A stretch of 63,217 nucleotides of DNA, filler included, from 8 parts of 8 records of this genome joined end to end with filler, not necessarily neighbours in it, one strand, 5' to 3'; positions 1,772-63,084 are shown, counted from the first letter of the whole stretch. Program-made: numbers and translations. Notes: generated by a model not told the origin, from the letters alone.

Positions 1772-4181
1772 ATGCTATCTGTCTGCCGGCGGGGGGCGCG
1801 TTCGGTGCTCAGCGCCGTCCCGGCAGGGCTCCCATCAGACCGGAGGGAGCGGCGCGGCCCTCCCCGCCGCTGGATCCGCAACCCGGGGGCCGCCTTCGCC
1901 GGTCCAGCTACCGCCGGGCCTGAAGCGGTGTCGGAGCGGCGCATCCTCGGGCGGCTGCTGCCCTACCTGTTCCCGGCGGACCGGCCGGAGCTGCGGGCGC
2001 GGGTGGTGGCGTCGATGGGGCTGCTGGTCGGGGCCAAGCTTCTAAACGTGCAGGTGCCGATCATCTTCAAGCACGCGGTCGATTCACTCTCGGACCCGTC
2101 GGCCTCTAGCTGCTACCTGGGGCTGATCGAGAACCCGGCCTTGCTCATGCTGGCCTACGGCACGGTCAGGGTCGGACAGGCGTGTGCCCGCCCGCCGGCC
2201 CGTGAGCGCGGGCGCAGGCCGTCTGCAACGAGGGACGGACCGCGGTGTTCGCCTCGGTGACCGAGCACGCCATCCGGCGGTTGTCCACGGAGGTGGGCCG
2301 GCCGGGGGGCGAGCTGAGCCCGGGCGGAGGTGTTCACGCACCTACATCGGCTGGATTTGAGCTTTCACCTCGGGCGGCAGACTGGAGCTGTCACCAGGTG
2401 CTGTCCCGCTGCACAGTCGCTGGTCAGTCGAAGGCAGGTGGGTGGATCGTGGCACCCAAGGAGTCAGCTTCGTGCTGAACGCGCTGGTGTTCAACATTGC
2501 ACCGATCGCGCTCGAAGTCGGGCTGGTGAGTGCGATCATGACATACACTTGCGGCCCGCAATACACGGCAGTCGCAGTAGCAACTGTGGCCGGATACTCA
2601 GCCTTCACCATATCAGTCACCCAGTGGCGGACCCAGTTCCGGAGGCAGATGAATCAGCACTCAAACTTGTCCTCCTCTTACTTGGTTGACTCTCTCGTAA
2701 ACTATGAGACGGTTCGTCTCCTCCGCTGGCCGGCCGCAGCCTCAGGCAGGTCAAGTACTTCTGCAACGAAAAGCTCGAGCACGACCGGTGCCCAGCCCAC
2801 CCGGCCCGGCCCGACCGGGAGCTGTCAGGTACGACCGGGAGCTCGAAAAGTACCAGCAGGCCGCTGTTCAGACCGCTACCACGCTCTCGATGCTCAACTT
2901 CGGCCAATCGGCCATTGTAAGCCTCGGGCTGGCCAGCTCAATGTACTTGGCGGCGGGGGACATCCAGGCCGGCCTGATGACAGTCGGCGACCTGGTGATG
3001 CTCAACGGGCTTCTTTTCCAGCTCTCGGTTCCGCTCGCAATGCTCGGCACTTCATACAGGCTGCTCCGCCAGTCCGTAGTGGACATGCAGAACCTATTTG
3101 GGCTTCTCGAGACCCAGCCGCAGGCAGCCCGGGCCGGCGCGCCAGCGAGCATTGGCTAGGTGCTGGACCTGCCGGACGCGCGCAAGCTGATCGTCTCCGC
3201 GCCGCCGGCAGTTGAATTCCGAGACGTCCACTTCGGATACACGTCCGACCGCCGGATTTTCAATGGCCTTAGCTTCGCAGTAGAGCCCGGACAGACAGTC
3301 GGCCTGGTCGGGCCGTCGGGAAGCGGCAAATCAACTGTGCTCCGGTTAATCTCTAGAATGTACCAGCCCAGCACCGGCGAGCTTCTTATAGACGGTGGCT
3401 CACTCGGCTGTCGAGTGGTTGTGACTGGGAGGCAGGCGAGCCGCTGTCGGAATTGGACAGTGACTCGGTGAGGCGGGCGATTGCGATGGTGCCGCAGGAC
3501 GTGGTATCGAGCATGGCTGTTGAGGTCACTGAGGAGGCGGGTGCAGGTCTTGTTCAACGATACTCTCAAGTACAATATCGCCTATGGGGACCCTCAGGCC
3601 TCACTGGAGCAGGTAGCTTTGGCGAGCGTGCACCGTTTCATGCCCTGCTCGCCAGATCATGGCAGCTGCGAGCGCTGCCCAACTCGACGGCACAATCACC
3701 AGCTTGGAGCATGGGCTAGACACGATGGTGACTGCTGTTGGGTCTCGCTGATGCCATTGCGTCAGGTGGGCGAGCGCGGTCTCAAGCTTTCTGGTGGCGA
3801 GAAGCAGCGGGTTGCTATTGCGCGGGCTGTGCTCAAGAACGGCCCGTTGCTGCTGCATGACGAGGCCACCTCGGCGCTGGACGGCGCGACGGTGGGCAGG
3901 CGGGGGGGCGTGTGTGACGTGGGGGGCAGGAGCGCGATGTGGCTAGTGCGCTGCACAGGATGGCGCACCATACTAGCTTGCTAGTGGCGCACAGGCTGAC
4001 CACCGTGATGGACGCCGATAAGATCCTGGTGCTCGGGAACGGTGGCTGGGTCCGGCTGGTTGGTGCGCTGAGCCTGTTGGCGGCAGGACGGGTGATCGAG
4101 GAGGGGCCGCACGCCGAGCTCTTGGCGATTCGAGGCGGAGTCTATGCTAACATGTGGGAAGAACGCAAGGACGAGCTCTAG
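1772..4181 (+). CDS. ATM1: Mitochondrial ABC half-transporter ATM1/ABCB7, 12 introns
   Basis: Arg-rich presequence; [28 protein letters not shown], Walker [30 protein letters not shown]. Introns 2180-2217 (GC), 2293-2329, 2398-2437, 2712-2749, 2788-2828, 3124-3159 (GC), 3395-3435, 3504-3546, 3613-3655, 3728-3765, 3892-3929 and 4042-4086 give one continuous frame. Confidence 0.93.
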
Positions 4182-5937: not shown

Positions 5938-6037
5938 NNNNNNNNNNNNNNNNNNNNNNNNNNNNNNNNNNNNNNNNNNNNTTAATTAATTAANNNNNNN
6001 NNNNNNNNNNNNNNNNNNNNNNNNNNNNNNNNNNNNN
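5938..6037. other. Artificial contig spacer (also 14139-14238, 25656-25755, 32513-32612, 41225-41324, 47510-47609, 59254-59353)
   Basis: Identical 100-nt N-run/TTAATTAATTAA/N-run linker with stops in all frames. Confidence 0.98.
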
Positions 6038-6818: not shown

Positions 6819-9800
6819 TTAGGTCGTTTTGGCTGTTGTGCCAATGATCAGCTCGCCGTTGGGATACATACAGCTTTGATACGCGTCGTGCACAGGCTGG
6901 TGGAGCCAGGCAGGGTCCAACTGATCATTAGGCCCCGACGCGTCCTCCATCCACAAGTCACACACGCAGCTGACCTAGCCAACATAGGTCAGAGCCAAGG
7001 CGGAAGCCACCATTGATGGTCGGAAGGTGAGCTCAAGCCACTGATGTCGCTCGACCGTGTTTGACACCACCGTGTGCTGTCCTTCATAGAAAGTGAACCC
7101 ACCACGGTACTTCAAGTCAATTCCAAGCAACTCTGTGAACGGATACAAAAACGCTGCCATCGTGCTTGACACTCCATGGCACTGACCCTGCCCCCGTGTC
7201 GCCAATTTTGCCACGTTGTCAGTGCGACCAACCCTACCGTGCACGACCCCTCTCCAACCCTTGAAACTTACAATGTCTAGACAGGCTCTCACAGCGTGCA
7301 CACACTGCTGTTGCAGCTCCAGGCAGCGGACTGGCTCCGCAAAGTCGAGTTTCTCAACAATTGGAGCCACCGCCAGCACAATTTGGTAAAGCTTAGCTTG
7401 GACGGCTAGGCTGCTGTAGTCGCACCAAACGCCATCCTCTAGTCGGACTCCACGGATAGGGTCTTGCTCGAATTCGTGCGGGTTATTCAACCGCTCCAAC
7501 TCGCTCATCAAAACTTGGACAGACTGGCTCTCGCCCAAATCCGTCTCCACCAAGACTGTGGCCATTTCGCCCTCACATTGGACAAACTCGGCACGATGAG
7601 TCACGAACAGCTCAGACTGAGCACTGGCATCTGCAGAGATCCGCATGTACCCTGGGTGAGTGACATTTGAGATCACCGGTGCCCGCACTAGCACCTGCCG
7701 ACCTTTATAAAAGCGCGGTGACTGCGCCATCATCTCCCAGTTGCGTGGCCCATTGAGCCACACCCCAAGCGCCAGCAGCTGCTGTGGATGAGCAACGGGA
7801 ATCTGGACCAGGGGAGGCAGACTGCCAAACAGCCGCACTGCCTCCGTGTGCAGCTCGTTGGAGCCGAGCAGCAGCGCCGCCTCAAGCAGCTGCTGCATCC
7901 TACCAGATGAGAACACGGCCCTGAAAGCCTCGACAGCAGCCGTCTGTTGACTGCCTTGCTGCAAAATCTGACGGGCCTGGCACAGGTCCAGCTTTCCATC
8001 GTCCACTGCTATCAGCGGTTGGAAAGACACCTGCCCGCCGTCACACCCTGCAGAGGGCGAGTCCAGGCCTGGTTGCCATACACGTCCTGTCCTGAAGCCT
8101 CGGGGAGCGGCCCGGCAGCAGCTTGCTGGTCTAGGAACGGATTCCTCCCAGTGAGAAACTCGAGCATGTGCCCAATCATTTGAGGCCTCACGCTCTTGCG
8201 GCTCTTCTTGGTGAACCCGCTCTTGATGAGCTTGATTGTGCCGTTAGGAATCGACTTTGCGAGTGGCTGCCACATGTTCCACGGATGAAATTGGTCCTCC
8301 TTTTGCCAAAGGACTAAGCTGGGCGCAACAAGCCGCCGTAGCTCGCCCTGCCGCCGCTCCTGCCAGGGCATTGAGGCCCACAAGCTTAGGCTAGGCGCCT
8401 GATAGCTGGCGTGGATGATCACCAAATATTCCACCACGGCCGGTGACCTGATCACGGCTGGTCAGGGCAAGGTGGAGCGCAGTTGAGACCTGAGGGCCAG
8501 CGAGATGGCAATTCCTGCGCCCCAATCTGAGCCAACCATTGTAGCATTGTGCACGCCCAGCGCCTCTAGCACAGCTGCTACTATATCCACCGCCCCACCC
8601 TTATCAAGATTGAACTCTGACCGCGCAGACTTGTGCTCGCCACCGTTGATCATGTGAACACCAGTGGAGAGCCCGCAGCCTGGCATATCTGGTGCCACCA
8701 CTGCGAAACCACTGGAGATTAGCGGACCGAAACACCAGCTGTACTCCTCCGAGCATGATGGGTACCCATGAAGGAACACGGCCACCGGTTGGTTGGCCAC
8801 GTCGCCGTACACGCGCACGGATAGAGTGCCGAGTGGAGTCTGCACCGGCCGCGGTCCTCCGAGCTCGTCTAGCTGAATTGACTCCCACGGCATGGTTCGG
8901 GGCTCGGACCTTGGATTGGGCTTAGGCTTTGGCCTGGTATTGGGCGGCAGCGTGGATCTAGGCTTGATCAGGTTCACAATCGGTTTGTTCTTGACGCTCG
9001 AGAAGCTCCTGGCAAAGCGGAGCGTGGCGATGGACTCGGATGCCGAGTCGAACGAAGATGACACGGTGGCAAGCAGCACGGTGCGACAGTTACCGCCGAG
9101 TGAGTTGGACAGCAGCCGAGTTAGCGTACAGTTGCGGTACGGAATATGCGATACGCGCTGTTTGCTCACCAACTTGGAGACCACTTCTGCCAGGAATTGG
9201 AGTGAAGAGTTGATTGCACATGCCTCGGCTGCCCGGTTACCAGTCGCGCCCGACCTCTTGATCCTCTCCGAGCCGGCCAGATCGACCAGGTGCAGCTGGG
9301 CCACTCGCCTGCTCTCGAGATTGCCGGTCTCGACAGTGAAGCTGGTGATCAGGTGAGACCGCGATGAGAGTTGGTTCATTTCCGTCGCGCCAGTTGCCCG
9401 CCTGCTGTACGCGCGACCCAGCAGCTCGGCCGCGTCGGCCGCCTCTCCGATCGGCTCTACGGAGGCGCCCTCAACGAACACCCCGCCGCCGGGGCTCTCT
9501 CGCAGCCGGACTGGCGGGGTTGTGGGGTGGAGCAAATCGGTGAGTTGCTCCCCGTACAGCTGCAGACAGGTCAGCTGGAGCAAATCGGCCGGCCCCAGCT
9601 GCCCGACCAGCTGATCCACCGCCCGCGGCACCACCCCACGGCCCGGACCGGACCAGTGCTCGCCCATGGTGTACGTCTTACCCGAGCCGGTCTGGCCGTA
9701 CGCGAATACAGTACCATTCACCCCGGCGGCGGCCGACTGGACCACCGGGTTGATGAGCTGGTATACCTCCTCCTGGGAGGCGGCGGGGCCGAGCACCCGG

Positions 9801-10051
9801 TCGAATCTGAACCCGGCCACGTCGGCGCTGTCGAGCGGCCGGTCTGAGTTGATCACCACCGGCTTGTCCGACTTGCTCACAAGCACGCACTGTTCGGCCA
9901 CCGCCACGCCCAGTCGGACCACGGCGCCCGGGAGCACCTCGCGCGGGAGCGGCGGGCGAACGCGCACGCCGACCAGGATCCCGGGCCGCTCCTGCAGCGA
10001 GGCAGTGGCCCCGGAGCAGTTGCTAAGCCCGAACTTACCCGCCCGCTCCAT
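6819..10051 (-). CDS. Kinesin motor + alpha/beta hydrolase + transglutaminase-like fusion
   Basis: Kinesin VRVRP, FAYGQTGSGKTYTM, NQLSSRSH, LVDLAGSE, HIPYR; hydrolase FLHGYP and GSDWG; C-terminal GQCHG/RHQWLE/VCDLW. Introns 8448-8489, 8360-8398 (putative, in frame), 8031-8068 (GC) and 6975-7010 join three ORFs; stop 6819-6821; start codon uncertain. Confidence 0.85.
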
Positions 10052-14138: not shown

Positions 14139-14364
14139 NNNNNNNNNNNNNNNNNNNNNNNNNNNNNNNNNNNNNNNNNNNNTTAATTAATTAANNNNNN
14201 NNNNNNNNNNNNNNNNNNNNNNNNNNNNNNNNNNNNNNCACCTCCATCGGCGTGATCTCGGTCCTATCCGCCGCGAATTGCCTGGTTTATATCGTCATTG
14301 TCACACGTGGTCGTATTAATTACTATGTATACAACTCGTTCAGTCATGCGCAGAGGAACCTCAC

Positions 14365-16099: not shown

Positions 16100-19000
16100 A
16101 TGTCGATGTTGCAGCAGCAGTTGGAGTTGGCCGGGGTGGCCCAGTACAGCGCTGGGCCGGTCAAGGCGGCCAAGTTCGGCGGCCGGGCCTCCTTCCTCTT
16201 CGATGGGGTCGCGGCGCTCGAGGTGCCGCGCCCGGCCGGGCCCGCCGCCCCAGCCGCCCGGCCAGGTGGACATGGCCACCGCGCACGAGATCGGGCGGAA
16301 CGGGATCGACGAGCTGATGGCCCAGGACGCGGACAGGTTTGGGCCGTTTGTCAAGCCGTTCTTCTCGGCGGGGGCCCGGGACAAGGACCGGACGCTGTGC
16401 ACGCAAGCCGAGAACGACCAGATCGACCAGCAGCTGGCCAAACTGCTCCGGGCGCTCTCGCCATACTTCCTGGCCCGACCCGCGCACAAGGTGTCGCCCC
16501 GGCCCGGCCCGGCGCCAGCAGGCTGTCAGGTACTCGAATGGCTTATCCGACGGTTTAGGATCCACGAGCTCAACCCGGGTGCCCAACGGCCCGGGCCCGG
16601 CCGGAGCGGGCAGCAGGCCCGGTGGTCGAGTGCATGCTGCCGTACCACCACACTCCACTGTTCGTGAAGATGTTGCAGCTGGTAGCTCCGGCGCTTCGCA
16701 GGACTGCGGCCGGCAAGCCGTGGCAATGGCTGGCCGCGGTCGCCAAATCCGGCGAGCCGTTCGGGCGGGAGCTGCTGGTCCGGCGGTGCGCCAAGGACGC
16801 CTCGCTGCTGGCGCTGCTCTGCCGGCTGGGCACCCAAGAGCCGTCGGCTGGCCGGAAGCCGGGCTACACCGAGTTGTTTGCAGTGGTGGCAGTGGAGACG
16901 ATACGGGCCAGCGAGCACCTGAGCCCGACTATGGTGGACACGCTCAAGAAGGCGGTGCTCCGGGGGCTCGAGAGCAAGGCGGGCGAGCCGCTCCGTCTGG
17001 CCGCGAGCATGGTGTTGGCCGAGCTGGCCGGGCGTGTCAAGCTAGAATCGGAAGCGCTCGCGCTGCTGCTCGAGGCCGTTGCCAAGGGCGGCGGCCCGCG
17101 CTTCCCCACCAAGAGCACCGTCGAATGTGAGCGCCCGCCGACCTGGGTCTGAGTAGGCCGCAGGTCTGGCGCTGCTGGTCAACTCACAGGATCTGGAAAG
17201 CTTGCCGCAGCGGTGCGTTCAGCACTTGGTCCGACTGCCGGTGAGCCTGGCCCTCCGCTGGAGCTGACTGGCCGGGGCAGGACCTGACGGCGGTGGTGGC
17301 CCAGCTGACCGACCAGTGCTCTGCTGAGCCGTTTGTGGCCGTGTACGTGGCTTGTCTCATGCAGAACGCTCTCGTGCACAAGAATTATCTGCAGCTGCTC
17401 GAGGAAGCGCTCACCGGACTGCCGGTGCGCGACTTGCTCCCCAAGCTGCTCCAGCCGCACCTCGGTCGGTTTCTGGCCCCTCCAGAGGTGCAGCGCAGCT
17501 GTGTTCGCGCGAGCCTTGGGCAGGGCGAGGACAACCAGAGGGAGCTCGTGCAGCTGATCCTCCAGCGCTGTGGCCAGCGGTTTGGCCCGCAGGTGGACGC
17601 CGCGCTGCAGGCTGCGCTCAAGCGGCACTCGTCGAAGGCACGCCGGGCTGCGGCCCTCCTGGTGATTGGGTGTGCAGGCCCAGCGCAAGCAGTTGGTTGG
17701 CTTGCTTGAGGCCACGTGGGAGGGCACGCGCAAGCTGGAGCACTCGGTGCTGGCCTGTCCGACCAGTGCAGGTGAGCGGGCCATCGTTGGCTGCTTGCTC
17801 ACTGCTAGCGCAGGCGGTGGGAGCACTACACTCTACCTGGCCTTGGAGCACCCTGCGGCTGCGGTTCGAATCGCAGCCATGACCTGTGTCGTGGACGGGG
17901 TGAGCGGCCCTGGTGAGCCTGGAGCGCTCGGGCACGGGCTGAGTGCTGTGTCAGATGGGGCTGATGTGGACACAGTGTCTGGTTCGCTGGTTGAGAGCTT
18001 CAGCCAGAGGCTTGAAGACGACGAGCAGCAAGTGGTGCTGGCAGCGCTCTCACAGCCCAAGCTGTTGCTCCGCGCCGAGCTGAGCAGCCTCGAAGCCAAG
18101 CTGACCAAGCTCGCCAGTCGCTCTGATGCTGCGAGGGATCCAAACGGCAAGTGTGCGGCCAAGGCCGTTTCCGTGCTGGCGCGGCATGTCTTGCCGCTTG
18201 GACAGAGCCAAGACAGGTTGCCCGCGGTGGTCAGCGCTGTCATACGTGGCATGATGCCGAGAGACGGCAACCTGGCGACTGCACTGCGCGTGATGAGGCA
18301 GGCTGCTGAACTCAAGGAGCACTGCCCCGTGTTTGGGCCGCTGAACGATCTGCACGCCATGCTAACAGACCAGCAGGCAGACACAGGCAAAGCCAGCTCT
18401 GACAAGTCAGCGAAGAAGAACAAGCGTAAAAAGGCAGGACAAACCTCGGAGGTATCAGCTTTGAGCCTCAAGAGCTTCATTGTCGGACTTGCCCAGGCCA
18501 TTGGTGAGTGGCCACGGTTGATTTCTGTGAGCTCTGAGCTGGTGATTGGCGCAGGTGAGGGCTCTGCGGACGAGATTGAGCGACTTGCTCTTTACAAGGA
18601 ATTTAAGGGGTTGGATGACCAGCATGCCAGCTTTGTGCTGATGCTTGCGCTAGCTTCTGCAGCCAAGCAAGGGCCCGAACGTGCTGCCGAGGCAGGCCTG
18701 ATGCTCCATTATGAGCTCACAGCTGCCGCCAGCCAAGCCAAGTGGCCATCGATGCCGGCTGACAAGTCCGAGGAAGATGCTCTTTGGGATCTGCTGCCAT
18801 CCATGCTCCAGGGAGAGCTGGCGCCAAGGCTTGCAATTGCCATCAGCTTGGTGCCTGAGGTGCTGGAAAATCTGGAGCGCACAGTTGAAGATAAGTTGCT
18901 GCAACATATGATGCAGCACTTCCCTGCGACTCCTGGGCACACTGCTCTAGTCTCTGGAGACATAGCTCTCTATCCTGAGCCAGCTCCAGAGGCACAGTGC

Positions 19001-25655: not shown

Positions 25656-26271
25656 NNNNNNNNNNNNNNNNNNNNNNNNNNNNNNNNNNNNNNNNNNNNT
25701 TAATTAATTAANNNNNNNNNNNNNNNNNNNNNNNNNNNNNNNNNNNNNNNNNNNNTCAAGCACCCTCGACAGCGCGCACTACGCTGACCGGGTGGATGGC
25801 AACTGCTGCTACTGTGGCGCTTGTCTCTCTTATGCTGGCAGTGCCTCCGGCTCTGGCTCCGGCATGTAGCTACTGACCACTAACGGTAGAAATGGACGGT
25901 GAGACTGGACGGTGAGCACCGGGATACCCCCCCGCTACTGGACGAGCTCATCTAGACGACCCAGAGGAAGGGCTAGAACATTGAAGATGTCGACCATGAT
26001 CATGGCTATCACGTTTATGCGGATTATGAAATAAACTCAATTTATTCATTAGTACTTGGACAGTCTAAATAATTATTTCATGAGCACTGTGTGTACGGAT
26101 AATGCGTCATTATTGGTTATTTTGCCAATCTCCATATGATTGATATCAAGCTTATAATTGACTTGTGAATATGAATTAATGTACATTGAACGGTCGAGTC
26201 CCCAAGTCTGCGTTAGAAGGAGTAAGAAGGAGCTGAAGCAATAGCAGCATACGGCCTCGAGCTGGCCTTCT

Positions 26272-29577: not shown

Positions 29578-31503
29578 TCACGCGCCGGACAGTTGGTTAG
29601 CCGGCCGCTTGAACTGCCAATACGGCAAATCCTGCTGCTCCATGTCCATCCTCTTGTCCAGCTCCGGGTGGCTAAGCCAGTGCAAGAGCTCTCCTGCCTT
29701 CCGCCCCGTTTCGCCGCTTGCCAGCTGGGCCAGCTCGAGCTCGCGCACCGCGTGCTGCAGGTTGCTTCCGTCTATGTAGTTGCCAGATATGGCCACGAAA
29801 TTATCCAAGTTTCTCACCTGGTGCGGTGCCCCCGCCGGGATAAAGATAATCTCGCCCGGCCTCAGCAGGTGTTCCTCTGGCTCCACCGGCCAGCCTTGCT
29901 CGCTGAACCCATCCACTCCAAACCCTCCACGCAAATAGTCCGGCCGCAAGAGGCTGTCAGCAAGGGTCATTCTTCCACCAGGGGCTTACTCACTCGGCAT
30001 GCTCTGGTCTGAAGACTCGCCAGTGCTTTGTGCCTTTGAGCACTGCCATCCAGAAGTGGCTGCCTATAGAGTCTGTATGCAGCCCACAGCCTGACCCAGC
30101 CGAGCCCACAAACAGGGACGGCCACTGCTCGCGGTAGTGGTCCGGGTGTACTACTGGTATCCGCTGCATCAGGTCCTGTGCAAAGTACTTTGGGATGGTC
30201 AGCTGGCCAAGCAGATTTGGGCAGTACTTGGGTAGACCCCAGTCAAACAGCATCCACTCGCTCTCATTGGCTAGCCCCGCCACAAAGCTTTCCAGCCGCA
30301 TCCCTGCCGGCCGCTCATCCAGCTGGGCCCACCCGCTTGTGTTGGGTCTGTGCCTCCGGAGCACTACCTCGGAGCTGCCACACGCCTGCGCTATCGCTTT
30401 CTGATTCCACTCAGCAGGCCGCGGCCGGCAGCTGAGCACAACTGGTCGGCCTGGGACGGCATACTGACTATAGAACTCGGCCAGGCTCAGGTTACACCGC
30501 ACAGGGATTGGGCGGGCCGCGAATGTGGCCGGCTGGTTGGGTCGGCTCCGGTCTGCTGCCTTCTGCTTGGCACAGAGCGCAGCAGCGTACACCGATCCAT
30601 TGGCCCTGGGCAGAGCAGTTGCGGCCAGTTCGAACTGGGCACAGGCCGCCTCCTGCCGGTCGGCTGCCAGCAGGGCTGCTCCGTTGGCATAGAGTGTCTC
30701 AACCGCCTGCTCCTGCAGTCCGCTCCCGGGTGCCGCCACCGCCAGCACCCGCCGCAGCCACCCTAGCCCCTGCACCCGCTGTGACAGGCCGACCGACGGC
30801 CAGGGCACCTGCGCGTGCTCCTGGTCGGCGCTGGCGGCCTGGGCTAGGGTAAGCTCGGCCAGCGCCCGAGTGCCAGCCTTGGCCCCGAGCTCAATCGCCC
30901 GTTGCAGCATCGCACCGCCTTCCTTGGTCCGGTTGGCCGCCACCAGTTGCACTCCAAGGTCCACCATCGCGCTCACGTGTCCGGGGTCGCACGCCAGCGC
31001 CCAGCGGTACCCAGCCAGCCGCCCGCCGCCACCCCCCGCCGCAACCGCCAGATGCCTGCCCTCCGGTCGCCCGACCCCGACCATAGGTCGCACCGGGCGG
31101 CAGCCGCGTCCGGGCACGAGGTTCGGGCGAGCGCGGCGGTGCACAGATGCAGCGCCTGGTCCGGCTGGTCGGCATGCAGCAGCCGCTTGGCGAGGGAGAG
31201 CGCCGGGGAGCCGGTGGCCCGGTCGCCAGTTAGCATGAGAGGGCGCGGGAGCTCGGGGGGCGTCCGTGCCTCCGCCCCGTCCCGGTCCAACGCCCGCAGT
31301 GGGCCGCCTGCCCCGAGCCCCGCCTGCGCCATGACTGCACACCAAAGCACCACTTGTCGTCCTGAGCCACGCGACCAGGCGCTGCGGCGGGCGCGGCTCT
31401 GCGGTAACTCTGTTTTGCCCGGAGAGGGGTGGCCGGAGGGCGGACGGCTGAGGTTGGTGACGTCGTGCAGCAGTGCGGGTGCAGCAGGCCGGGGCTCGAG
31501 CAT
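29578..31503 (-). CDS. TPR + JmjC 2OG/Fe(II) oxygenase (JMJD4/6/8-like)
   Basis: TPR-like helices; WPSLFVG...GLHTD, GTKHW, PGEIIFIPAGAPHQVRN; 40-nt intron near 29956-29995; 5' exon structure uncertain. Confidence 0.8.
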
Positions 31504-31580
31504 GCCCCCCCCCTCAGTGGGCGCTGCCACACGCCCCACACCAGTCAGCTGACAGTGTGTGCTGCACCCGAGCAACGGAA

Positions 31581-31696
31581 AATCGGGCACAATCGGGCAC
31601 TTTCGGGCCCTATTCAAGGCCTGGGTTAGGTCCATTTTCATAATCAACCAACGGATTATCGGCACAATCGGGCACAATCGGGCACAATCGGGCACC
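31581..31696. repeat. AATCGGGCAC decamer arrays upstream of the JmjC gene
   Basis: Two copies plus a variant at 31581-31608 and about four at 31658-31696. Confidence 0.85.
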
Positions 31697-31939
31697 GCCG
31701 TTAAATTCTGAGAGGAAGACGTCAACGGACACCTGCCGAAAAACGGCAAGTGTCCGTTAAAAAATCTGCGACCAGTATAGCGCCACAAGAGAGCTTGGGC
31801 CACTGTGAGGACAGGCTAGGAGCTACAGCCGAGCAGCAGGCCGTGGCCCGACAGAATGGCGGAGCTCAACTCCACCAGGGACGGGCCGACCGCCAAACCG
31901 ACCTGGTTCGCCCGATCCAGACCCAAGCTGAGCCAGGAG

Positions 31940-32512: not shown

Positions 32513-32612
32513 NNNNNNNNNNNNNNNNNNNNNNNNNNNNNNNNNNNNNNNNNNNNTTAATTAATTAANNNNNNNNNNNNNNNNNNNNNNNNNNNNNNNN
32601 NNNNNNNNNNNN

Positions 32613-39449: not shown

Positions 39450-39770
39450 TAGTGACACAATGATGGCCAGCCTCCTCTCGATTTTGCATGGGTGGATAAC
39501 AACGATGATCACATGCTTGTGAGCATGTGCATTCATACTCGTATAGGGCATTCATGTCGCTTACGTATCGCTTTCATCTTTGACGGAGTGCCGGACCGTC
39601 ATGTAATAGTCATGTACTCGTAACTAGTCTAGCTATGACTTACTGATGTATGATATAACTATGATTAAAATGTTGGCCGATGAATACTACTACTGCTACT
39701 ACTACTGCATTTACTTGTTACTTGTTATTTGTACAAGTGCCGTACATGCCTTTTTAAAGCACTCACCGAC

Positions 39771-41224: not shown

Positions 41225-41324
41225 NNNNNNNNNNNNNNNNNNNNNNNNNNNNNNNNNNNNNNNNNNNNTTAATTAATTAANNNNNNNNNNNNNNNNNNNN
41301 NNNNNNNNNNNNNNNNNNNNNNNN

Positions 41325-43612
41325 CCAGGTCAATGTGAGTGGTCGTACAGCATGGGTAGGCGCGGGAACAAAGGTGTGCTGCTGCTTAGTTTATATTCTA
41401 GCCTTGCTCTGAGTTGGGTTGCAGATGGGTGTGTTGCAATCTGAGCTGATGCAATATCAACTCTACGGAGTTGCAGGTACGTCCGATACTGTGGGCATCA
41501 GTGGATACACTCTGGGTGGAGGGTGGGGCCTGACTTCTCGATTAGTTGGCCTTTCTGTCGACCAAGTTCAAGCCATTGAGGTTGTACTCGCCAATGGCAC
41601 AGTTGTCATAACCAACCGTACTCACGAGCCACTTCTCTTCTGGGCAATGCGTGGTGCAGGTGGAGGCAATTTCGGTGTTGCGACTCGCTTTCGCCTGACT
41701 GTACATCAAAACCCAGCGCAAGGTGTCATCTATTCTGAAATGCGGTGGCCAGCAAGCCAGCTCTCACTTCTGGCCAACATAGCCCAAATGCTTGGCCCAT
41801 CTGGGGAACTCGCAGACCGTGTTGGTTTGATTCTTTATGTGATAAAAGCCAACTCTACTGTGCAACTGGCTGCCACAGTGCTTGTAATGGACAATGATCG
41901 TGAGCTCCTGGGCCCGTTGCTTAGGCTCAAGCCAATCAAAAGCACAGTGACCGTCACTCAGCTGCACAGGGTCAACTCATTGATTGCCGCGTTTGAGTCG
42001 AGCTACATGCCTGATGTTCCCCTCTTTGAGAAGAAAAAGAGCGGCTTCCTCAACCCAAGGCTGCGTCCCGAACAATATTCTACTTTGTTATCTGCATTGA
42101 TAAGTGGAGTAGCGAACTCACCGTCTGGGGTATCATCCGCCTACTTGGAAGCTTGGGGTGGCAGGATCAATCGAGTGTCTCAAAGTTCCACCTCCTTTGT
42201 TCACCGTGAGTTTGTTCTTGATCTATCCATATGCGCCTTTTGGCAACAGCGGAACCAAGCAAATGAAAACACAAAGTGGCTACAAAATCTTTACAGTGGG
42301 ATTAAGCCTGGGCTCTCCGGTTCTGTTTACCAGAACTATGTCGACTCAGAGCTGACAAACTTTGCGGTCGCCTATTACGGCAATTCGTCGACGCTTGAGA
42401 AGCTTGAGGCTGCCAAGCATGCCTATGATCCGAATAGGCTGTTTTCCTTCCCTCAAGGCATCGCGCACTTCCCCAGCTTAGGCACAAGGGTCGCTAGCAC
42501 ACCCAACAATCTGCGGGCCGGGCTGATCCCGGCGAGCGGGGCCTGGCGTGGGGCCGAGCTCGGGGACCAGTTTGGGCCGGACTCGGACGGAAAGCTGGCG
42601 GTCTACGGTCAACACTACGGCCGGACCCCCCTCCACGTGTACAGAATTTTCAACCAGACTGTCGGGCCTAAGATTAAGTCCTGGGTAGCCGATGGCGGGA
42701 TTCTGTGGTACAACATCAAGGCTGGGAAGCAGATGAGCTGGAAGGAGGCCGCCGAGGGCAAGTTCGACGCTCAGGCAAAGCTCTGGGCCAGCCAGGTGCG
42801 GTCGCTGGCTCCTGCCAAGGCATTCGTGGCTTTATATCATGAGCCAGGTGTGTGATATGAGCCTGACTTTATATCATGAGCATTTGTGTTGGCCAGATCA
42901 CAACGTCTGCTTCAGCACCTGCAGAGGTGGCGGCGTCCCTGGGAACACGCCAGCAAACTACCGGCGGATGTGGCAGCGGATCCGGGCGATCTTTGACCAG
43001 GAGGCAGTACGGAACGCGGTGTGGGTGATGGACTATTCGGTCCAGATCAGTAACAATGCGAGCGACTGGAACAGCGAGTGCTCCGAGGAGTCGTGCTCGC
43101 CAGCAGCAGCTGTCGCGCCGCTGTGGCCGGGCGATGATCATGTGGACTGGGTCTTCTTCAACGTGTTCGAGAAGGGGAAGAACGGCGGCAAGGTGAAGGC
43201 CACGTTCAACGAAATGGTGACCGCGAGCTACGGGCTGCTTCAAGGAATCACGACTGCCGCCGAGCACTGTAATTGCGTGCCGAAGAGGGATCGCAACTGC
43301 TCTGGCTGTGATCTGTCTTCAAAGCCCTGGGGACTAGGAGCGTTTGGCGCCCATGGGTTTGAAGTGACCCCTCCTACAAAACACGATAAACCTGTCACTC
43401 CGGATGCACACGCACAGTTTCTGCAGGACGCTGCCAACGGTTTTACCAAGTTCCCCAAACTATTGGCATGGCTGTACTACGATTCCAAAGAGTGCGAAGT
43501 AGCCCTAGCTGCCAACAAAAGCCTTGCGGCGGTGCAGCGCGCGTTTCAAGAGTATCTGGACAGTAAGTCGTTCGCTATCAATGACGCGGGCGCACCCCCC
43601 TTGCAAGACTGA
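41325..43612 (+). CDS. FAD-dependent BBE/AA7-like oxidase fused to a GH26-like domain, 5'-partial
   Basis: VGISGYTLGGG, LFWAMRGAGGGNFGV, YQNY, YYGN, K..YDPNRLF; then LYHEP, YRRMW, WPGDDHVDW, KPWGLGAFG; intron 42848-42896. Confidence 0.85.
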
Positions 43613-47358: not shown

Positions 47359-47704
47359 GCTTCCTGAGAGCGCCCCTCGCGAAAATTGGTCAACAACGGC
47401 ATTTCGATCCACCTCAGCTGCCGATCGCGAGAAGAGTGTATCATCGCCGCCCGCGCCTGAGAGTGTAGACGGTACGCCGGTAGCGGGCTAGCGGAGGGGC
47501 CGGGGACACNNNNNNNNNNNNNNNNNNNNNNNNNNNNNNNNNNNNNNNNNNNNTTAATTAATTAANNNNNNNNNNNNNNNNNNNNNNNNNNNNNNNNNNN
47601 NNNNNNNNNCGGCGTGTTGGCCGCCAATGCGCTACTCGACGAGCCCTGGGGCATCCAGCCGATCAACGACCTGAGCAACAACAACGACAACGGCGGTGTA
47701 ATCG

Positions 47705-49097
47705 ATGGCACGAGCGGTGCTGTGTGTGCAATCGATGGCGCGAGCGGTGCTGTGTGTGGTGCTTGCGGGGGTTCTGCTGGCAGGTCCGGCGGCTGGGATG
47801 GAGTACTCCGGAGTGGAGGAGCTCAAGTCGCTGATGGCGCACACCGAGGACCAGCTGGTGCTGGGGGTCACCACCCGGAGCAACTGCGGCGAGCCTTGCG
47901 AGCTGTTCGACCAGTTCCTCACCGCGCTGGCCGGCAAGATGGAAGGCTTCTTCCAGGTCAAGCAGGTGCCGCCCCGCGGGCGCTGGCCCGGCTGACCGCA
48001 CTGGTCAGGCCGACGTCAGCACCCAGATCTCGATCGGGGCTGAGGAGAGCAACATACAGTCGCTTTATAATATCTCGACCATACCCACCATCCGGGTCTT
48101 CCCGTACGGGCTCAAGAGCTGGACCACTGCGTATGCGATCGACACCAACGCCACTTCGCAGATGATGGGCGCTTACCTGAAGGCGCCGGCCGCTCAGCTC
48201 CCGATGGTCCACAAACAAGTCCACGACGTGCTGCTTCAGTTCCTTCCGAGCGGCCCGATCGAGTCTCTCGCCGCCAGCTCGCTCGATGAGTGGCTCTCCG
48301 GCGAGCCTGCCAAGGCCAAGGCGCTGCTGCTCACCTCCAAGTCCAGCACGCCCACCATGTTCACAAAGCTCTCTCTGGACTTTGGAGCCGGGGTGCGGTT
48401 TGCGGAGCTCCGATCTTCCGAGACTGCCGCGCTCAAAAAGCTCAAGGAGCTGGGCTCGAAGAGCCTTGCAAAGCTGCTCGAGACCCCAAAGTTCCCGATG
48501 TTGCTGCTGGCCGGGCCAGGCGGCGGCGCCAAGAAGCTCAAAAAGTATGACGGCCCGCTCAAGCTCGCTGCGATCGCGGAGGAGCTCAAGAAGATCTCGC
48601 CGGGTGTGATTGTTCCAGAGTTGCATAAACAGACCATGTTCGAAGAGGTCTGTGCCAGCAAAGGCGGGATATGCGTGGTCGGGCTGCTGCCAGGACGGTT
48701 TGATGAGCCGGTCGAGACCCTCAGGCAGGTGGCTGGGCGCCAGTTCCCGGGACAGCCTGGGCAAGCCGCGCAGGCCAATGTGCACTTCGCGTGGATCAAT
48801 GCTGATAGGCAGGAGGCTTTTGCTGAGGGGTTTGACGTCGAACACTTTCCGTCTCTAATCGCCGTCAACCCACGGAAGAAGCGATACAGGTGCTTTGAGC
48901 GAGCCGGCGCGGCTGAATGGGGTGGGGGCAGTGCGATGAAAGGGACGTTTGATGTGGAGAGCATCCGCGGGTTTATTAGTCGGACGCTCACGGGGAAAGA
49001 GCCGCTGGCCCGACTGGAGAAGGTGCCAAAGCTCGAGAAGAATGGGCCGTCGGTGAGCTCTGCCAAGATGGATAAGCTGATGCGAGGCGAGCTGTAG
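47705..49097 (+). CDS. ER-lumen thioredoxin-fold (PDI-like) protein
   Basis: Signal peptide; CGEPC; IPTIRVFP; multiple Trx-like folds; C-terminal RGEL; 43- and 42-nt introns. Confidence 0.75.
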
Positions 49098-50183: not shown

Positions 50184-52985
50184 ATGATTGAGGCGGTGCT
50201 GCCTCTGCTCCGGCGGTCGCAGGAGACTGAGTACGAGCACAGCCAACGGGACTTGAGCTTCGCAGAGCGGCAGCACCGGTTGATATGCGACCCGATCGTG
50301 CTGATCTTGTTCGGGTGCGTCTTCGCATGCGCGATATGGATGCCGAGCACCCGAACACCGCCATGCCGGCTGCTGGTCTGGCGGTTCGTGTGCATGACCG
50401 TGGTGGTGATCAACTCGCTCGTGACCGCGATCCTGAAGTGGCCCTACTTTAAGAACGTCTTCTTCCTGGCCTCAAACCAAGCCTTCTTCCTCATGGCCGT
50501 GCTCCTCACGGCCATGTCAGTATGGGAGACTGTGTTCATCGCCCGTAACCCGTTCAAGAACGATCGGTTCGGCGCGTCCGGGTTCGTGTTTGTGCTGCTG
50601 TTTGGGGCGATCCAGTACATGGGCGTGGTGCTCGACTTCTACAAGTCAACATACACTGATGACCGGTCGTACGACTTCGCGCTTTTCAAAACGGCCGAGG
50701 ACTACTGCCAGGACACCTTCTTCATCTTTGCAGTCTCGCTGGTCGGGATCTCGGTGCTGTTGAGCGTGCTGACTGCGATGGAGCTCAGCTGGGGGCTCGA
50801 GCTTTCGAGGCGGTCACGGCAGCGTGTTATTGTCCAGCAATTTTGCATCACTGCAGCGTTTGGGGCGTCCGATTTGCTTCGAGGCATCCTGCTGCACAGG
50901 TCGGTGGATGAGTACAGGCACGGGCACGAGGAGACGGTCGATTTGGTGCTGACGCTCAGTTGGATGTACGATGCAGTCATGTGGTTTCTACTAACGGGGG
51001 CTGCCTGGACTCTGATCTCTCAGATTCGGGGAGCGGACGGAGAGCAGGAGGACGCGCAGAACGAGGACGCGACGGGCGAGGTGAGCTGGATGCGGCGGCT
51101 GGAGGACTACTGGGCCGCCGACAATTTCGAGGCCGACATGAGGCATCAGCTTACAGTGATGACCGCCATAGGAATCAACTATTGCGCAGAGAGCTGTGTC
51201 GCCCGGTTCGAGGGCAAGACCGAGCTGCAGGATAAGTACCGCCAGCTCGTGGAGCGGTGCCTCACGTCCAATGGGACCATCTCAAAGGATGAGTTTACTG
51301 CAGCCGGCTTCTCGCCCGAGCTGTTTGCTGAGCTTCACAAGTCGGATTCAACAGACGGGCTGACTGCCAAACAGCGGTGTGGGTACATGGATCCTCGGGA
51401 TATGGAGGTCTATGGGGACTCGATCGAGCTGAATAGCACCTGCAGCCAGGGACAGAGCAGCTGTGGTGTGAGAGATTCAATGGATTGGCAGACAGCGATT
51501 CGTCTTACCCCGGTAAGCAATAATTGCCCGTCCCAGGGCGAAGCTGCAACGCGCACGAGTCTCGGAAGGTCGAATTCTGCTGAGAATCGGCGAGCCTCGC
51601 ATGTCCTTCAAGCGGCCGAGAAGGGATACGGAACTGCCTCCAAGACGGGTGGGCTGCGGATGCCAATCATGATGGGAGGCAAGGCTCTAGAATTTTTCAC
51701 TTATGAGTCGATGGTTTTCGACCTGGTGCGTCTTGCGCTGTTGAGTTGATGCTGACTGTGAGCTGGGCAGGTGAGGTACAAGCTTGGGGTGAAGCCCGAG
51801 ACATTCTTGGAGGCGATTGAGCCAATAGTTGAGGCATGTGGCGAGCGCGTGCTGAAGCGTGGGGTGACGGATCAAACCGAGCCCTCGTCGGATGAACCAA
51901 AACTTGCCCGGGCGCCTTCTCAGGTGGAAAGCTTTCACGATCTCAATTTCAGGGAGATTATGTCCTCTGGAGCCTCCGGGAGTTATTTTTATTTCACGCC
52001 GAATCAGATGTTTATTGTGAAGCAGATAGACCTAGGCGAGAAGGACCAACTTCAAAGCATGGCCTACGCGTACGCAAAGCACTGCTGCGAGAACCCAGAG
52101 ACAATGATCCACTATTACGGCTTGTACTCACTTCGTCTGCCGATGTATTCGTCGGCTAAGATTTACTTTGTCGTGATGAAGAACTTCCTGTTTGCCCCGA
52201 TGTGCCAGGAATTGGGATCAGAACCTCTGCGGAGAGAATCGCGCTTGGATAAGATTACGCTCACCTTTGACCTCAAGGGCGCCACCACCAACCGACGGAG
52301 GATCAAAGACCTAGAGAAGCTGGAGGCGATTAATCAGGGCGCCAAGGGAAGTTCGCTGCTCGATTGGGATTGGATGGGACTTGGCTACCAAATGCTGCTC
52401 AGCAACCAAGCCAAGCGATGGATGGCACTCCAGCTGAGGGAAGATCTCAAGTTTCTGGCTTCTTGCCAGCTGCTTGATTATAGCCTTCTGCTTGGGGTCA
52501 CGGATAGTCATAGACAAACTTTGGCTAGGTCGACAGCTGAGGTGACCCCACTTGCGGGGCCCGCACACGAGCTGCTCGCCTCTTCCGATCACGGTCAGCG
52601 AGGTCTGCAGCTGGCGTCGACTGATGGGAGAATAGCGTACTGTTTCGGGATGATTGACATCCTCGAAGGTTGGAACTGTCGGTGGTCCATGCAACAGAAG
52701 GTGCTAGGGTGTGTGCTGAGCTGCTGCAGCCGGCTGGGCAACCCCCGAGGGATCACTGCCATACCGCCTCAGGAGTACGCCTGGAGATTTGAGGAGTTCA
52801 TGCTCGATCAAGTACTTGGGATCAGACTGCCCAGTTTCCCGGTGGCCGCAGCGGCTGTTAACCCGGTAGATATAGATAGACAAGACAATGCGCTAAGCAT
52901 AGAAGACGACGTGCTAAGCATAGAGGAGCTAGAGGATCATGGATGGAAGTCCGCTGGTGCTCCAACCTGGATACCGTGGAAATGA
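50184..52985 (+). CDS. GPCR-PIPK: 7TM domain fused to a phosphatidylinositol phosphate kinase
   Basis: About 7 TM helices; SGASGSYFY, FIVK, VVMKN, FDLKG, LLDYSLLLG, FGMIDIL; intron 51726-51770. Confidence 0.88.
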
Positions 52986-59180: not shown

Positions 59181-59353
59181 GTGTTGTACGGTATTTCGTA
59201 TTTGAGAGTAGGGGTTCCGTTGCCTGCGATGGCTTCTGTCCATCAAGGCAATTNNNNNNNNNNNNNNNNNNNNNNNNNNNNNNNNNNNNNNNNNNNNTTA
59301 ATTAATTAANNNNNNNNNNNNNNNNNNNNNNNNNNNNNNNNNNNNNNNNNNNN

Positions 59354-59797: not shown

Positions 59798-62700
59798 TCA
59801 TCGCCGCGACGGGAAGCTGCCATCGGCCCGGAGCGACGCCCGGAGCGACGAGAACTTGAGCGGCCCGCTGCTGGTCGAGTCGGTTGGCACGATCCAATCA
59901 AGCGACTTCATCTGCACCAGCGGCGCCACCGACGGCCGGCCGTGCGCGCATTGGAACGGGAAGGCACACGCCGACAAGTCTTGCACTAATTGAGTCGCTG
60001 TCTCGGTACTCAGCCTGTGTCCATTCCGTTTAGACGAGTGAGCGGCGAATGAAAGTGGGGCACCGGTCGCCAAACATGATGGCGCCACGACAGGCGCTCG
60101 AGGCGAGGATCCTGCCCCGGCTAGCTGAGGGGCGCCAGGTCGCCGGCTGCCTGTGCACTGCGGGCGGGCTGCTGGCTGCGCCATGCGTTGCCTCCTGCCC
60201 GGGGAATCGGCCACGGCGCTCTGAATCAGCAAACCAGGGCGCAGATGAATTCGACCAGGTCGCTGACGGTGAGCTGGGTGGCTTCAATCTCCGGGGCTTG
60301 GGTGGCCACTTTGAGCTCGGGGTCGAACCGCCAGCCCCAACTGTGGTCCTGATCACGCTGAGCAGAGCGCGGGGGCACCGCTGGACTGGAGTCATGTGCT
60401 GGGACAGGAGCGCTCGGTGTCGGGCAGGCAGGCATAAGCTCAGGCTAGCTGGTGCGACCGTGATTTGCCCGGCTGCACAGGCCTGAGCGTGTCATATACA
60501 ACACGGGATGCGCCTTGGTATTGGTCAGCGAGTCGCTTTTCTGCCGCCTCTAGCCGAATTCTCTCGTCGGCCGCGTGTTGGTCGACAACTGCCGGCGGTG
60601 AGTGCGATCGTGGGAGGGGCACCGGTGACTAGGCCCTCGGGGGTGACGCAGAGGAGGAACTTGGTTTCGAGTTGGCCGGAATAGCTCGCCTGCCGGGGCA
60701 TCTGTCTATGTACTACTACTGTGTATACTACTGCTATATCGCTGTACTGATATACTACCAGGCGGTAGTATATGGCTTGCCTGCTGGAGCATCTGCCTCG
60801 ACAGTCGTTGCTCCTCCCCTGGAGTGGCGTCTCAATCCAGTGAAGCACGTTGCGGGCACCTTCCGAGTTGCACGCCAGCACCTTCGCGGCGCCAGTAAAA
60901 CAAGGATTCACCCTGCACCGACTGCTGTCACGCCCCAGACAGCCAGAGCATGCCCACCATCCGTCAATCAGCGCGCCACGACCGATGTGAGCTTCATACA
61001 GTGCGAGGGCTCGGAGGCAGGCGCTGTCATCATCTGCGAGATGACTCACAAGCAGCGCGAGTGGGCGACTCGGGCGACTCGCCGTCTGACGTGCCGTAGG
61101 GATCCACAGGGATGATTGGCTGGATGGCTGGCCGAGGGGCTGCCTGGCTCTGGGGCGCGCGATGGAAGATGTCAGCGCTCACGTATCTGGCGGGCGGGGC
61201 TGCCGCCCTCCTGGAGGCAACGGCCGGAGCAGGGGGCGGGCAGGAGTTGGCAGAGGGCTCCGCAGGCTTGGCTGGCGCGGGTGCTGGCAGCGGCCTCGTT
61301 TCTGTTGCTGGCTCCGCAGGGGCGTCGTCGGTTGGGGCTGGGACTGGCAGCGGTCGCTTCTCTCTGCGCATGGCGCCTGAAGAGACCCCGCCCACCAAGT
61401 GCTGAGCCATGGCAGCCCTGGCCATCGGGGGGCGCTGCGGCCTGACGGCAAGTAACTGGCGGTGCGCTCGTTGCTGAGCTGCTTGCGCTATCAACTCATC
61501 TACGGTGGGACCTGGCAAACGCTGTTCAAGCACGATTGACTGCAGCAGAACCGGTGGTGATGCACGAGATTGCGTCGCTTCGGATGATCTCTTCAGGCAG
61601 CCGAGTCGCCTTGCGGGCTGGGACCAAGGGCAGCAGCTCGTCAGCGACTGTGTGGCCGCACTCGCGCAGGAACCTAAGCCCGCAAGGTGTCAATGCGCGC
61701 GGTGTCGTGTGGTCGCCTGGCGGCAAAGTTGCGCGCCACGACACTCGCGAGCTTGTTATCGTCGAATTGGACCGAAGCCTTGCTCGGCTCGAGCAGAACG
61801 CAGAACCGGGACGGGCAGCACTCAACAGAAACCACAAACTGTCAACAGCGCTCACATCAGCTGATTCGATGCCTCACAGCAGGGTGCATCGCGCTCTGGA
61901 CTGTATCCTTCGTGCGATGCCAGACCACTCGCCGCTGTTTCGCTGGCCGCTGGTCTGCTGCCTCGCGGCTGCTCAGCGAGGCGTAGAGGCTGTTGATTGC
62001 TTCGTGCACTCGCGACGATTCGCTGAGCCTGAAAGATCAGAGCTGAAAGAAGCACCGAGAGCGCGTCGACCTTCGTCCGTTGAGAAACACAAACTGCAGG
62101 TCGCCGGTCGACAGGCAGCACGAGGGCCGGCTGAGCAGCCCGCTGATCGAGAACCCCGCTGACTCATACGACGGCGCCGCCTCGAGCGCCGCAGCTCTTG
62201 GATCGTCGAAACTCTGCGCAGTCTGGCTCAGATTGATCCCTCAGGCCCGCAGCTGACCAGCGACTGGACGGCATCCAATAGTGTGTCATGCCTGCGGCTC
62301 TGAAAGACGAGCGTCTGAGTCGAAGCATCCACAAGCGAGAAAGCCACCCCAAACTCCGCCAGCGACAACTCCTCCAGTCTTCGTCTGAGCAATTCTAGCT
62401 CGCGGCGGGTCTCGCCCAAAAGCAGCCGCTGACGGACTGGCTGGTAGCGGAAGATCTCAGAGACAATCACAACAGTGCCTGCCAGCCTTTATCAGAGTCG
62501 CTAATCTCGAACGCGAAGACCCGGGACAAACGGCCTGCCCTGCTCGGTTTCGGTGATCGTGTGCTCGGACGGCTGCTGAGCGGACGGGCGGCTGACGACT
62601 TTGGTGGCCGACCGCTGCTCGGCTCGAGAGCCGGTGGTGATCTGGACAGGCCTCAACCGCCTGGTGCGCGTGCCGGTGCCTGCAGCCTGGCGATGCTGGC

Positions 62701-63084
62701 GACGTTGGCAAGCGCCTCGCCCCGAAAACCCTTGAGCCTGGGCGCGCCCGGGGCGGCCGGTTGTTCGAGCTCGGCCAGGCTGCTCAGCTTGGAGGTGGCG
62801 TGCCTGTGCCCCACCATCGGCAGGTCGGCCATCCGGATCCCGCAGCCTGTCCCCGCCATCAGGCCCGGCCCGGCCCAGCGCCAGCCACCGTTGTCGGTCA
62901 CGCTGAGCTTGAACCCGCGTAGGTTGAGGCTGCACACGACTTGGCTGGCCCGGGCGTCCAGCGCGTTCAGCACGAGCTCCTCGGCCAGCTGGGCCACCGA
63001 CGTGATCGACTGGCCGGTACGGATCGCGTCGCGCAGCTCGGGGCCCAGGACCCGCACTCGGCGGGCGTCATCAACCTGCTGCAT
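59798..63084 (-). CDS. MLH3: MutL homolog MLH3, multi-intron
   Basis: GHKL motifs ELVLNALDA, VTDNG, HATSK, GFRGEAL; DQHAADERIRLE; ACRGAIMFGD; CAFPFQCAHGRPS; middle exons not all traced. Confidence 0.9.
60690..60780 (-). other. Atypical 91-nt AT-rich GC-AG intron with duplicated junction and hairpin
   Basis: Splicing gives RQMLQQ/ASYSGQLETKF; junction repeats CAGATGCTCCAGCAG|GCAAGC and CAGATGCCCCGGCAG|GCGAGC; internal ATATACTACC-gcct-GGTAGTATAT. Confidence 0.7.

Follow-up and report, generated by a model that had tools for sequence, protein, structure and literature searches.

A predicted GC-AG intron in an MLH3-like gene, with a 27-nt exon duplication in register with both splice sites: a probable intron gain by insertion

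Background

According to a review, the routes by which new introns can arise include the insertion of transposons at AGGT, tandem duplication and the repair of breaks (PMC3443670). Here we analyze a predicted 91-nucleotide (nt) intron in a mismatch-repair gene resembling MutL and MLH3, which lies on the minus strand of a stretch of 63,217 nt (63 kb; hereafter, the window). The intron begins with GC, ends with AG and has each of its junctions within one of two copies of a 27-nt sequence, which are separated by 64 nt of AT-rich DNA. The case belongs to a known kind of intron gain, but the long duplication, exact register and GC donor are unusual. Of this genome, the DNA searched was the window, and all copy counts and controls given below refer to it.

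Several described systems are close to this locus. Among introners, there are families whose median length is down to 30 nt, families in which GC donors make up as much as 50%, and families whose splice sites are both provided by the insertion site (Gozashti et al. 2022, PMC9860276). Our candidate resembles the last type, known from Florenciella, in its lower-GC insert, its duplicated target, the unchanged length of the mRNA and the tolerance of GC donors. It differs from introners as presented there in that their target duplications are 3-9 bp long, compared to 27 bp here, and in that introners by definition form multi-copy families, whereas the insert has no second copy in the 63 kb searched. 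Introners derived from retrotransposons without long terminal repeats (non-LTR) have also been described (PMC12130899). By contrast, our locus shows neither a relative of reverse transcriptase nor a poly(A) tail, and no family of elements.

Li et al. (2014, PMC4202315) attributed new introns of Daphnia to the repair of staggered double-strand breaks, and these share with our candidate the presence of short internal repeats inside the intron. Introns of the break-repair type carry at their far end a short direct repeat of the adjacent exon end, together with a foreign or unknown insert, and we find both here, the repeat being longer. Intron gain by tandem duplication of AGGT, as outlined in the review, is similar in that a proto-splice site is duplicated, donor and acceptor lie in separate copies and the gain is precise (PMC3443670). 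However, an intron of that kind consists entirely of duplicated exon, as opposed to 27 of 91 nt in our case, and the site is AG/GT, not AG/GC (a slash marks a splice junction throughout). Finally, Rogers and Bendich (2025, PMC11782384) surveyed different classes of intron and reported direct repeats, 4-30 bp in length, close to the borders. Relative to the range given there, the present repeat is at the long end, and it is in exact register with both splice sites.

Results

A repeat search identified the two copies at positions 60681-60707 and 60772-60798, with 22 of 27 nt identical (81%) and a start-to-start spacing of 91. On the minus strand, the upstream copy (60772-60798) comprises the last 18 nt of an exon and the first 9 nt of the intron, and supplies the GC donor. 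The downstream copy (60681-60707) comprises the intron's last 18 nt together with the next exon's first 9 nt, and supplies the AG acceptor. Within each copy, exon runs into exon without interruption (18+9 nt), and the register is that of the donor and the acceptor: the 9 intronic nt of the upstream copy resemble the next exon, and the 18 intronic nt of the downstream copy resemble the previous exon. The edges of the copies are sharp. When the two are compared in register, 22/27 positions agree inside the repeat, but only 13/42 on its left and 12/52 on its right, and a gapped alignment adds no extension. All five mismatches are transitions, as expected if these are true but diverged copies.

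Taken alone, the 27-nt repeat is only moderately rare, given that 11 repeats with a score of at least 17 and a spacing of 25-300 occur in the window, versus 1 in five control sets with far spacing. When repeats are scored in register with splice junctions, the target reaches 17 and the 40 other predicted introns score at most 7. None of 1640 control pairs of donors and acceptors reached 17 (maximum 14). About 4 of the 22 matches between the copies are attributable to the splice consensus.

Introns were predicted with a gene finder whose coding model was trained on 18 long open reading frames (ORFs) of the window. Its splice-site matrices were seeded with 15 hand-picked short introns and then refined from the finder's own predictions. 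We preferred a version with fixed matrices; a first codon-based version and iterative retraining were dropped after a runaway to 852 introns. A conservative run yielded 35 predicted introns, of which 33 are 36-51 nt long with a mean GC content of 0.72 (range 0.43-0.93). Ordinary predicted introns have the donor GTG(C/A)G, and the CAG/G at their end is preceded by a G-rich stretch, not by a pyrimidine tract.

The intron in question occupies 60690-60780 on the minus strand, with the GC donor at 60780-60779 and the AG acceptor at 60691-60690, and its junctions read CAG/GCAAGC...CGGCAG/GC, the GC standing in a strong donor consensus as is usual for U2-type GC-AG introns. Its GC content is 0.46. 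The donor score of 3.6 and the acceptor score of 7.7 are both inside the range of a reference set of 33 introns. The spliced product, EEQRLSRQMLQQ/ASYSGQLETKFLL..., stays open into the C-terminal blocks of MutL. As coding sequence the intron would be highly atypical: its insert, read as 22 codons, scores lower than all 8973 windows of the training ORFs, and the entire intron, read as 29 codons, scores lower than all but 0.034% of training windows. On these predictions, 60690-60780 is very likely a spliced intron. We also considered a nested (twin) intron or recursive splicing at the regenerated CAG/GC, for which internal sites score poorly.

Homology indicates that GC donors are genuinely in use in this genome, because the exon ends of a second GC-AG intron map to adjacent residues in solved homologs. 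This intron, at 3124-3159 in a gene for an ATM1/ABCB7-like transporter, joins residues corresponding to 344 and 345 of 4mrn_A and to 334 and 335 of 8k7c_A, and has the only homology-verified GC donor in the window. Six GC donors are predicted in all, but for five of them a frame-compatible GT would also give an intron of ordinary length, and how large a share of the donors are GC is therefore uncertain.

The host gene extends over approximately 59801-63084 on the minus strand, according to tblastn and the gene model, and has many short introns. Its N-terminal GHKL ATPase region was detected by tblastn of MutL homologs against the window, with E-values of 4e-22 (P0001) and 2.7e-19 (P0008). In translation, the C-terminal blocks QLETKFLL, VVDQHAADERIRLE, RILASSACRGAIMFGD and FQCAHGRPS align to homologs, and VVDQHAADERIRLE and FQCAHGRPS match what we take to be the endonuclease motifs DQHAxxExxxxE and CxHGRP. 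The top named protein match is bird Mlh3, at 39% identity, and Pfam matches on single exons, HATPase_c included, are all under the cut-off. These similarities point to a MutL homolog that is MLH3-like, where the assignment within MLH3/PMS1/PMS2 comes from the top named match and not from a tree. The organism has no close relatives in the databases searched: the closest proteins are at most 46% identical for the N-terminus of MLH3 and at most 40% identical for a lipid kinase.

In the lenient gene model, the exon chain reads ...VLACNSEG / EEQRLSRQMLQQ / ASYSGQLETKFLLCVTPEGLVT / VVDQHAADE.... The exon encoding EEQRLSRQMLQQ is only 38 nt long (60781-60818, minus strand) and lies between two introns. 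Codon statistics favor its spliced frame, which scores -5.27 per codon versus -6.21 for the read-through frame. Just upstream of it is an ordinary GT-AG intron of 41 nt (60819-60859, minus strand) whose donor score of 10.5 equals the highest in the 33-intron reference set. The next exon, encoding ASYSGQLETKFLLCVTPEGLVT (60623-60689, minus strand), lies where the MutL C-terminal domain starts and aligns to P0002 and P0008. It is followed by a GT-AG intron of 34 nt (60589-60622, minus strand); with this intron removed, the spacing from QLExKF to DQHAADE is that of the homolog P0002. We noticed that the introns at 60690-60780 and 60819-60859 total 132 nt and that one frame is open through both (60690-60859), so retention of the two together would stay in frame and add 44 codons.

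The DNA between the copies (60708-60771, minus strand) is AT-rich and unrelated to the flanking exons. It consists of a single short motif copied in direct and inverted orientation, including a TAC/GTA-rich unit of 12 nt that occurs twice in tandem (60709-60733, minus strand). A repeat search revealed a hairpin at 60750-60773 (minus strand), which overlaps the upstream copy by 2 nt. Its arms, 60750-60759 and 60764-60773, form 10 bp with 100% complementarity around a 4-nt loop. The hairpin is non-random: there are only 2 perfect stems of at least 10 bp (loop 3-12) in the window, and when the intron was shuffled 5000 times, a 10-bp stem arose in 6 cases. Folded as RNA in its entirety, the intron does not stand out (-21.1 kcal/mol, z -1.88; 9 of 200 shuffled sequences were equal or better). 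The other perfect 10-bp hairpin, at 50492-50516, has a 5-nt loop, is GC-rich and is located within a long coding exon.

Apart from the hairpin itself, the insert has no nearby matches, and there is no sign that it was templated from nearby sequence. Neither a second copy of the insert nor a dispersed repeat of any kind was found in the window. The best other matches to it are exact over 11 nt and fall at 39685-39707, in a TAC-rich microsatellite (TACTACTACTGC twice; 39680-39710) within an AT-rich intergenic stretch. In view of this shared motif, the insert resembles the genome's own AT-rich non-coding DNA. Rfam gave four matches, the best with E=2.1, all far under the gathering scores. Exact-match scans of a collection of prokaryote genomes with two stretches of the insert returned 0 and 0 matches, which says little, as the collection contains no eukaryotes.

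We consider it probable that this spliceosomal intron was born by an insertion into a formerly continuous exon. The 27-mer would at first have been contiguous within an intron-less coding stretch. About 64 bp of AT-rich, partly palindromic DNA would then have entered the MLH3-like coding sequence, with 27 bp of target duplicated on either side. Of the duplicated CAG/GC, the GC of the first copy would have become the donor and the AG of the second copy the acceptor, a use that would work because the genome accepts GC donors. Removal of the 91 nt takes out exactly one copy plus the insert and restores the frame ...LSRQMLQQ/ASYSGQLETKF..., which would be the original one. The geometry, the sharp edges of the copies, the foreign composition and the restored frame are observed directly, whereas we infer that splicing occurs, that the gene formerly lacked the intron and which agent brought about the insertion. 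The event would not be recent, because the copies differ at 5 of 27 sites (19%).

An earlier note on this DNA, made by a model from the sequence alone, had drawn the same intron, and its boundaries are borne out as the best frame-compatible GT/GC-AG choice (12.9 bits versus 6.4 for the next, a lead of 6.5 bits). It was also right that the length and composition are atypical (91 nt and 46% GC, against mostly 36-51 nt and a mean of 72%), that a perfect 10-bp stem lies inside the intron and, as far as GC donors are concerned, that splice rules are permissive. The imperfect repeat of 21-24 bp that it placed across both junctions is present, with one copy giving the donor and the other the acceptor, but its length is 27 nt. 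The note explained the intron by duplication of an AG/GC-containing target plus filler or DNA like a miniature inverted-repeat transposable element (MITE). The sharp edges and uninterrupted copies agree with insertion and duplication. The MITE-like part is not supported, given the lack of a second copy in the window and a duplication far above the 3-9 bp of transposon-type introners.

Alternative explanations

As the agent of the insertion, we tentatively prefer error-prone repair or template switching during replication, which seems somewhat likelier than a mobile element. The filler would have been built by snap-back and slippage on TAC/GTA-rich DNA. Two observations favor repair over a transposase: the repeat length and spacing differ among the three affected introns (27/91, 18/37 and 12/20 nt; see below for the latter two), and the insert, made of one motif's short copies, is single in the 63 kb. 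That the insert was a mobile element, i.e., that the intron is an introner, is more doubtful. The likeliest candidate of this sort would be a 5′-truncated non-LTR retroelement, or a tail like that of a short interspersed element (SINE), that arrived by target-primed reverse transcription; a very short MITE-like element is less likely. Insertion of non-LTR retroelements gives long, variable target duplications and would explain the 27 bp. In the orientation of the gene, the hairpin is followed by a GTA-rich tail of short repeats that adjoins the downstream copy, which presumably resembles the tails of SINEs and of long interspersed elements. By eye, the two ends of the insert are inverted repeats of each other at 9 of 12 bases; the hairpin is at one end only. 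Compared to the exons, the insert is rich in AT, which is reported of introners in general, and short, GC-donor and site-derived-splice families are all among the introners described (PMC9860276), as are non-LTR-derived ones (PMC12130899). On the other hand, a transposase-type element is unlikely, as transposon-type introners have duplications of 3-9 bp in the same source (PMC9860276), far from the 27 bp found here, and as neither a further copy nor any dispersed repeat occurs in the window. Moreover, we see neither a poly(A) tail nor an A/T-rich nick site at the edges of the copies, and Rfam has no significant match.

A number of points weigh against the intron, or against its birth by insertion. 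Since the intron set and the splice matrices are products of our own gene finder, the tests are partly circular. The finder calls the 91-nt intron only at the most lenient intron prior, and stricter settings break up the gene model. Its donor score is close to the bottom of the reference range (1.9-10.5), and forbidding the GC donor costs only 2.6 bits, in which case a 79-nt intron (60781-60859) is called and the AT-rich stretch is translated. One reading frame is open across the entire 91 nt, synonymous codon choice alone is unremarkable (3.5th and 7.9th percentiles), and homology does not discriminate between the spliced and read-through products (91 versus 85 with P0008, 88 versus 90 with P0002). 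If every part had the same age and evolved neutrally, one would not expect a perfect hairpin beside copies that are 19% diverged. Finally, the repair introns of Daphnia have repeats of 4-12 bp and are young and polymorphic (PMC4202315), unlike a 27-bp repeat with 19% divergence.

Several of these points would fit the idea that the sequence is not an intron as drawn, which we regard as unlikely. The AT-rich part would be translated following the 79-nt intron, or else a smaller GT-AG intron would lie inside it. The insert does contain frame-compatible GT-AG introns of 37-46 nt, and in this variant both copies would be coding, as a duplication of nine codons (RQMLQQASH ... RQMPRQASY); 27 nt is exactly 9 codons, and the copies read alike in their own frames. 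However, the internal GT-AG options are at least 10 bits under the 91-nt intron, the 38-nt exon prefers the spliced frame, and no training window among the 8973 looks as little like coding sequence as the inner 22 codons do. We think it less likely still that an old intron occupies an old position and that the similarity of its junctions came later, e.g., by a process involving complementary DNA or conversion, or by chance on top of the CAG/G consensus. The copies are only 81% identical with nothing pointing to a recent event, the splice consensus contributes some of the matches, and a repeat of equal score at a spacing of 25-300 is not extremely rare, with one in the five control sets. Yet none of the donor-acceptor pairs reach the score, the intron lacks any feature of the ordinary introns of the genome, the copy edges are sharp and all differences are transitions. 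The uninterrupted exon-exon sequence in both copies is most simply explained by its having formerly been unbroken in the genome. If instead a 91-nt exon segment with AG/GY had undergone plain tandem duplication, and its middle had since diverged beyond recognition, a duplicated AG/GC would also lie at both splice sites and intron length would equal repeat spacing; according to a review, this mechanism was shown in vivo (PMC3443670). It is nonetheless highly improbable here and effectively ruled out because of the sharp edges and the foreign composition of the middle. Only 27 of 91 nt are similar, identity drops abruptly to background without gradual decay, and the upstream exon is just 38 nt long, its first 20 nt having no match to the intron.

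Other introns and features of the window

Two further introns contain copies of exon sequence. The first, of 41 nt at 2788-2828, is in the ATM1/ABCB7-like transporter gene and has near its end 12 nt (2812-2823) that exactly repeat the beginning of the downstream exon (2832-2843), with a spacing of 20. The second, of 49 nt at 42848-42896, has a copy (42864-42881) that matches the end of the upstream exon (42827-42844) at 17 of 18 positions, with a spacing of 37. A weaker, third partial copy lies between these two segments. The longest exact matches in the 2788 and 42848 introns are 12 and 15 bases, and only 1 of 1418 control pairs reached 12. Including the MLH3-like case, exon-derived copies occur in 3 of 39 predicted short introns, which is beyond chance. 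We rejected the possibility that the sequence after the copy in the 42848 intron was once coding, as the present junction keeps what we take to be the HEP motif.

The earlier note linked these two introns to the one in MLH3 as signs of an active mechanism of intron birth by duplication. The exon copies are indeed real and more frequent than expected by chance. However, both introns are of normal length and their copies are out of register with the splice sites, and they show local duplication within introns, not intron birth. Nor does the word "active" suit the MLH3-like locus, whose copies have diverged at 5 of 27 sites.

Ordinary short, GC-rich introns are predicted, for example, at 2712-2749, 16223-16265 and 47966-48008, and many genes of the window have very long exons. 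In the ATM1/ABCB7-like transporter, removing the predicted introns yields a contiguous conserved protein. A predicted gene on the minus strand (6978-10051) would combine a kinesin motor, a region similar to alpha/beta-hydrolases and a further C-terminal part. Tandem units of 10 nt with the sequence AATCGGGCAC form an array at 31581-31695, and a second block is 85-95 nt away. This array is inside a long minus-strand ORF (30973-31815), just upstream of a predicted minus-strand gene (29993-31332).

The window also has seven pairs of runs of 44 N, with 12 bases between the members of a pair. These are located at 5938-6037, 14139-14238, 25656-25755, 32513-32612, 41225-41324, 47510-47609 and 59254-59353, i.e., about 6-12 kb apart, and none is close to the target. 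They look more like masked stretches than assembly gaps.

Conclusions

The origin of introns is still argued, and clear footprints at single loci are rare beyond a few model groups. The locus described here displays all parts together: exon sequence that is present twice, an unrelated insert, splice sites derived from the target, and a donor that is GC instead of GT. In the lineage of origin, introns are very short and rich in GC, and the protein databases searched contain no close relatives of it. It is conceivable, although we think it improbable, that the locus is the footprint of an undescribed intron-generating process in a poorly sampled lineage, of a template-switching or reverse-transcription type, that duplicates tens of bases of its target. 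Under such a process, any AG/GY within the duplicated interval would simultaneously turn into donor and acceptor.

The locus shows that AG/GC can serve as a proto-splice site in a genome that accepts GC donors. If the rate of 3 in 39 is typical of this genome, whose ordinary introns are GC-rich and about 40 nt long, introns, and the sequence inside them, would regularly arise by local duplication.

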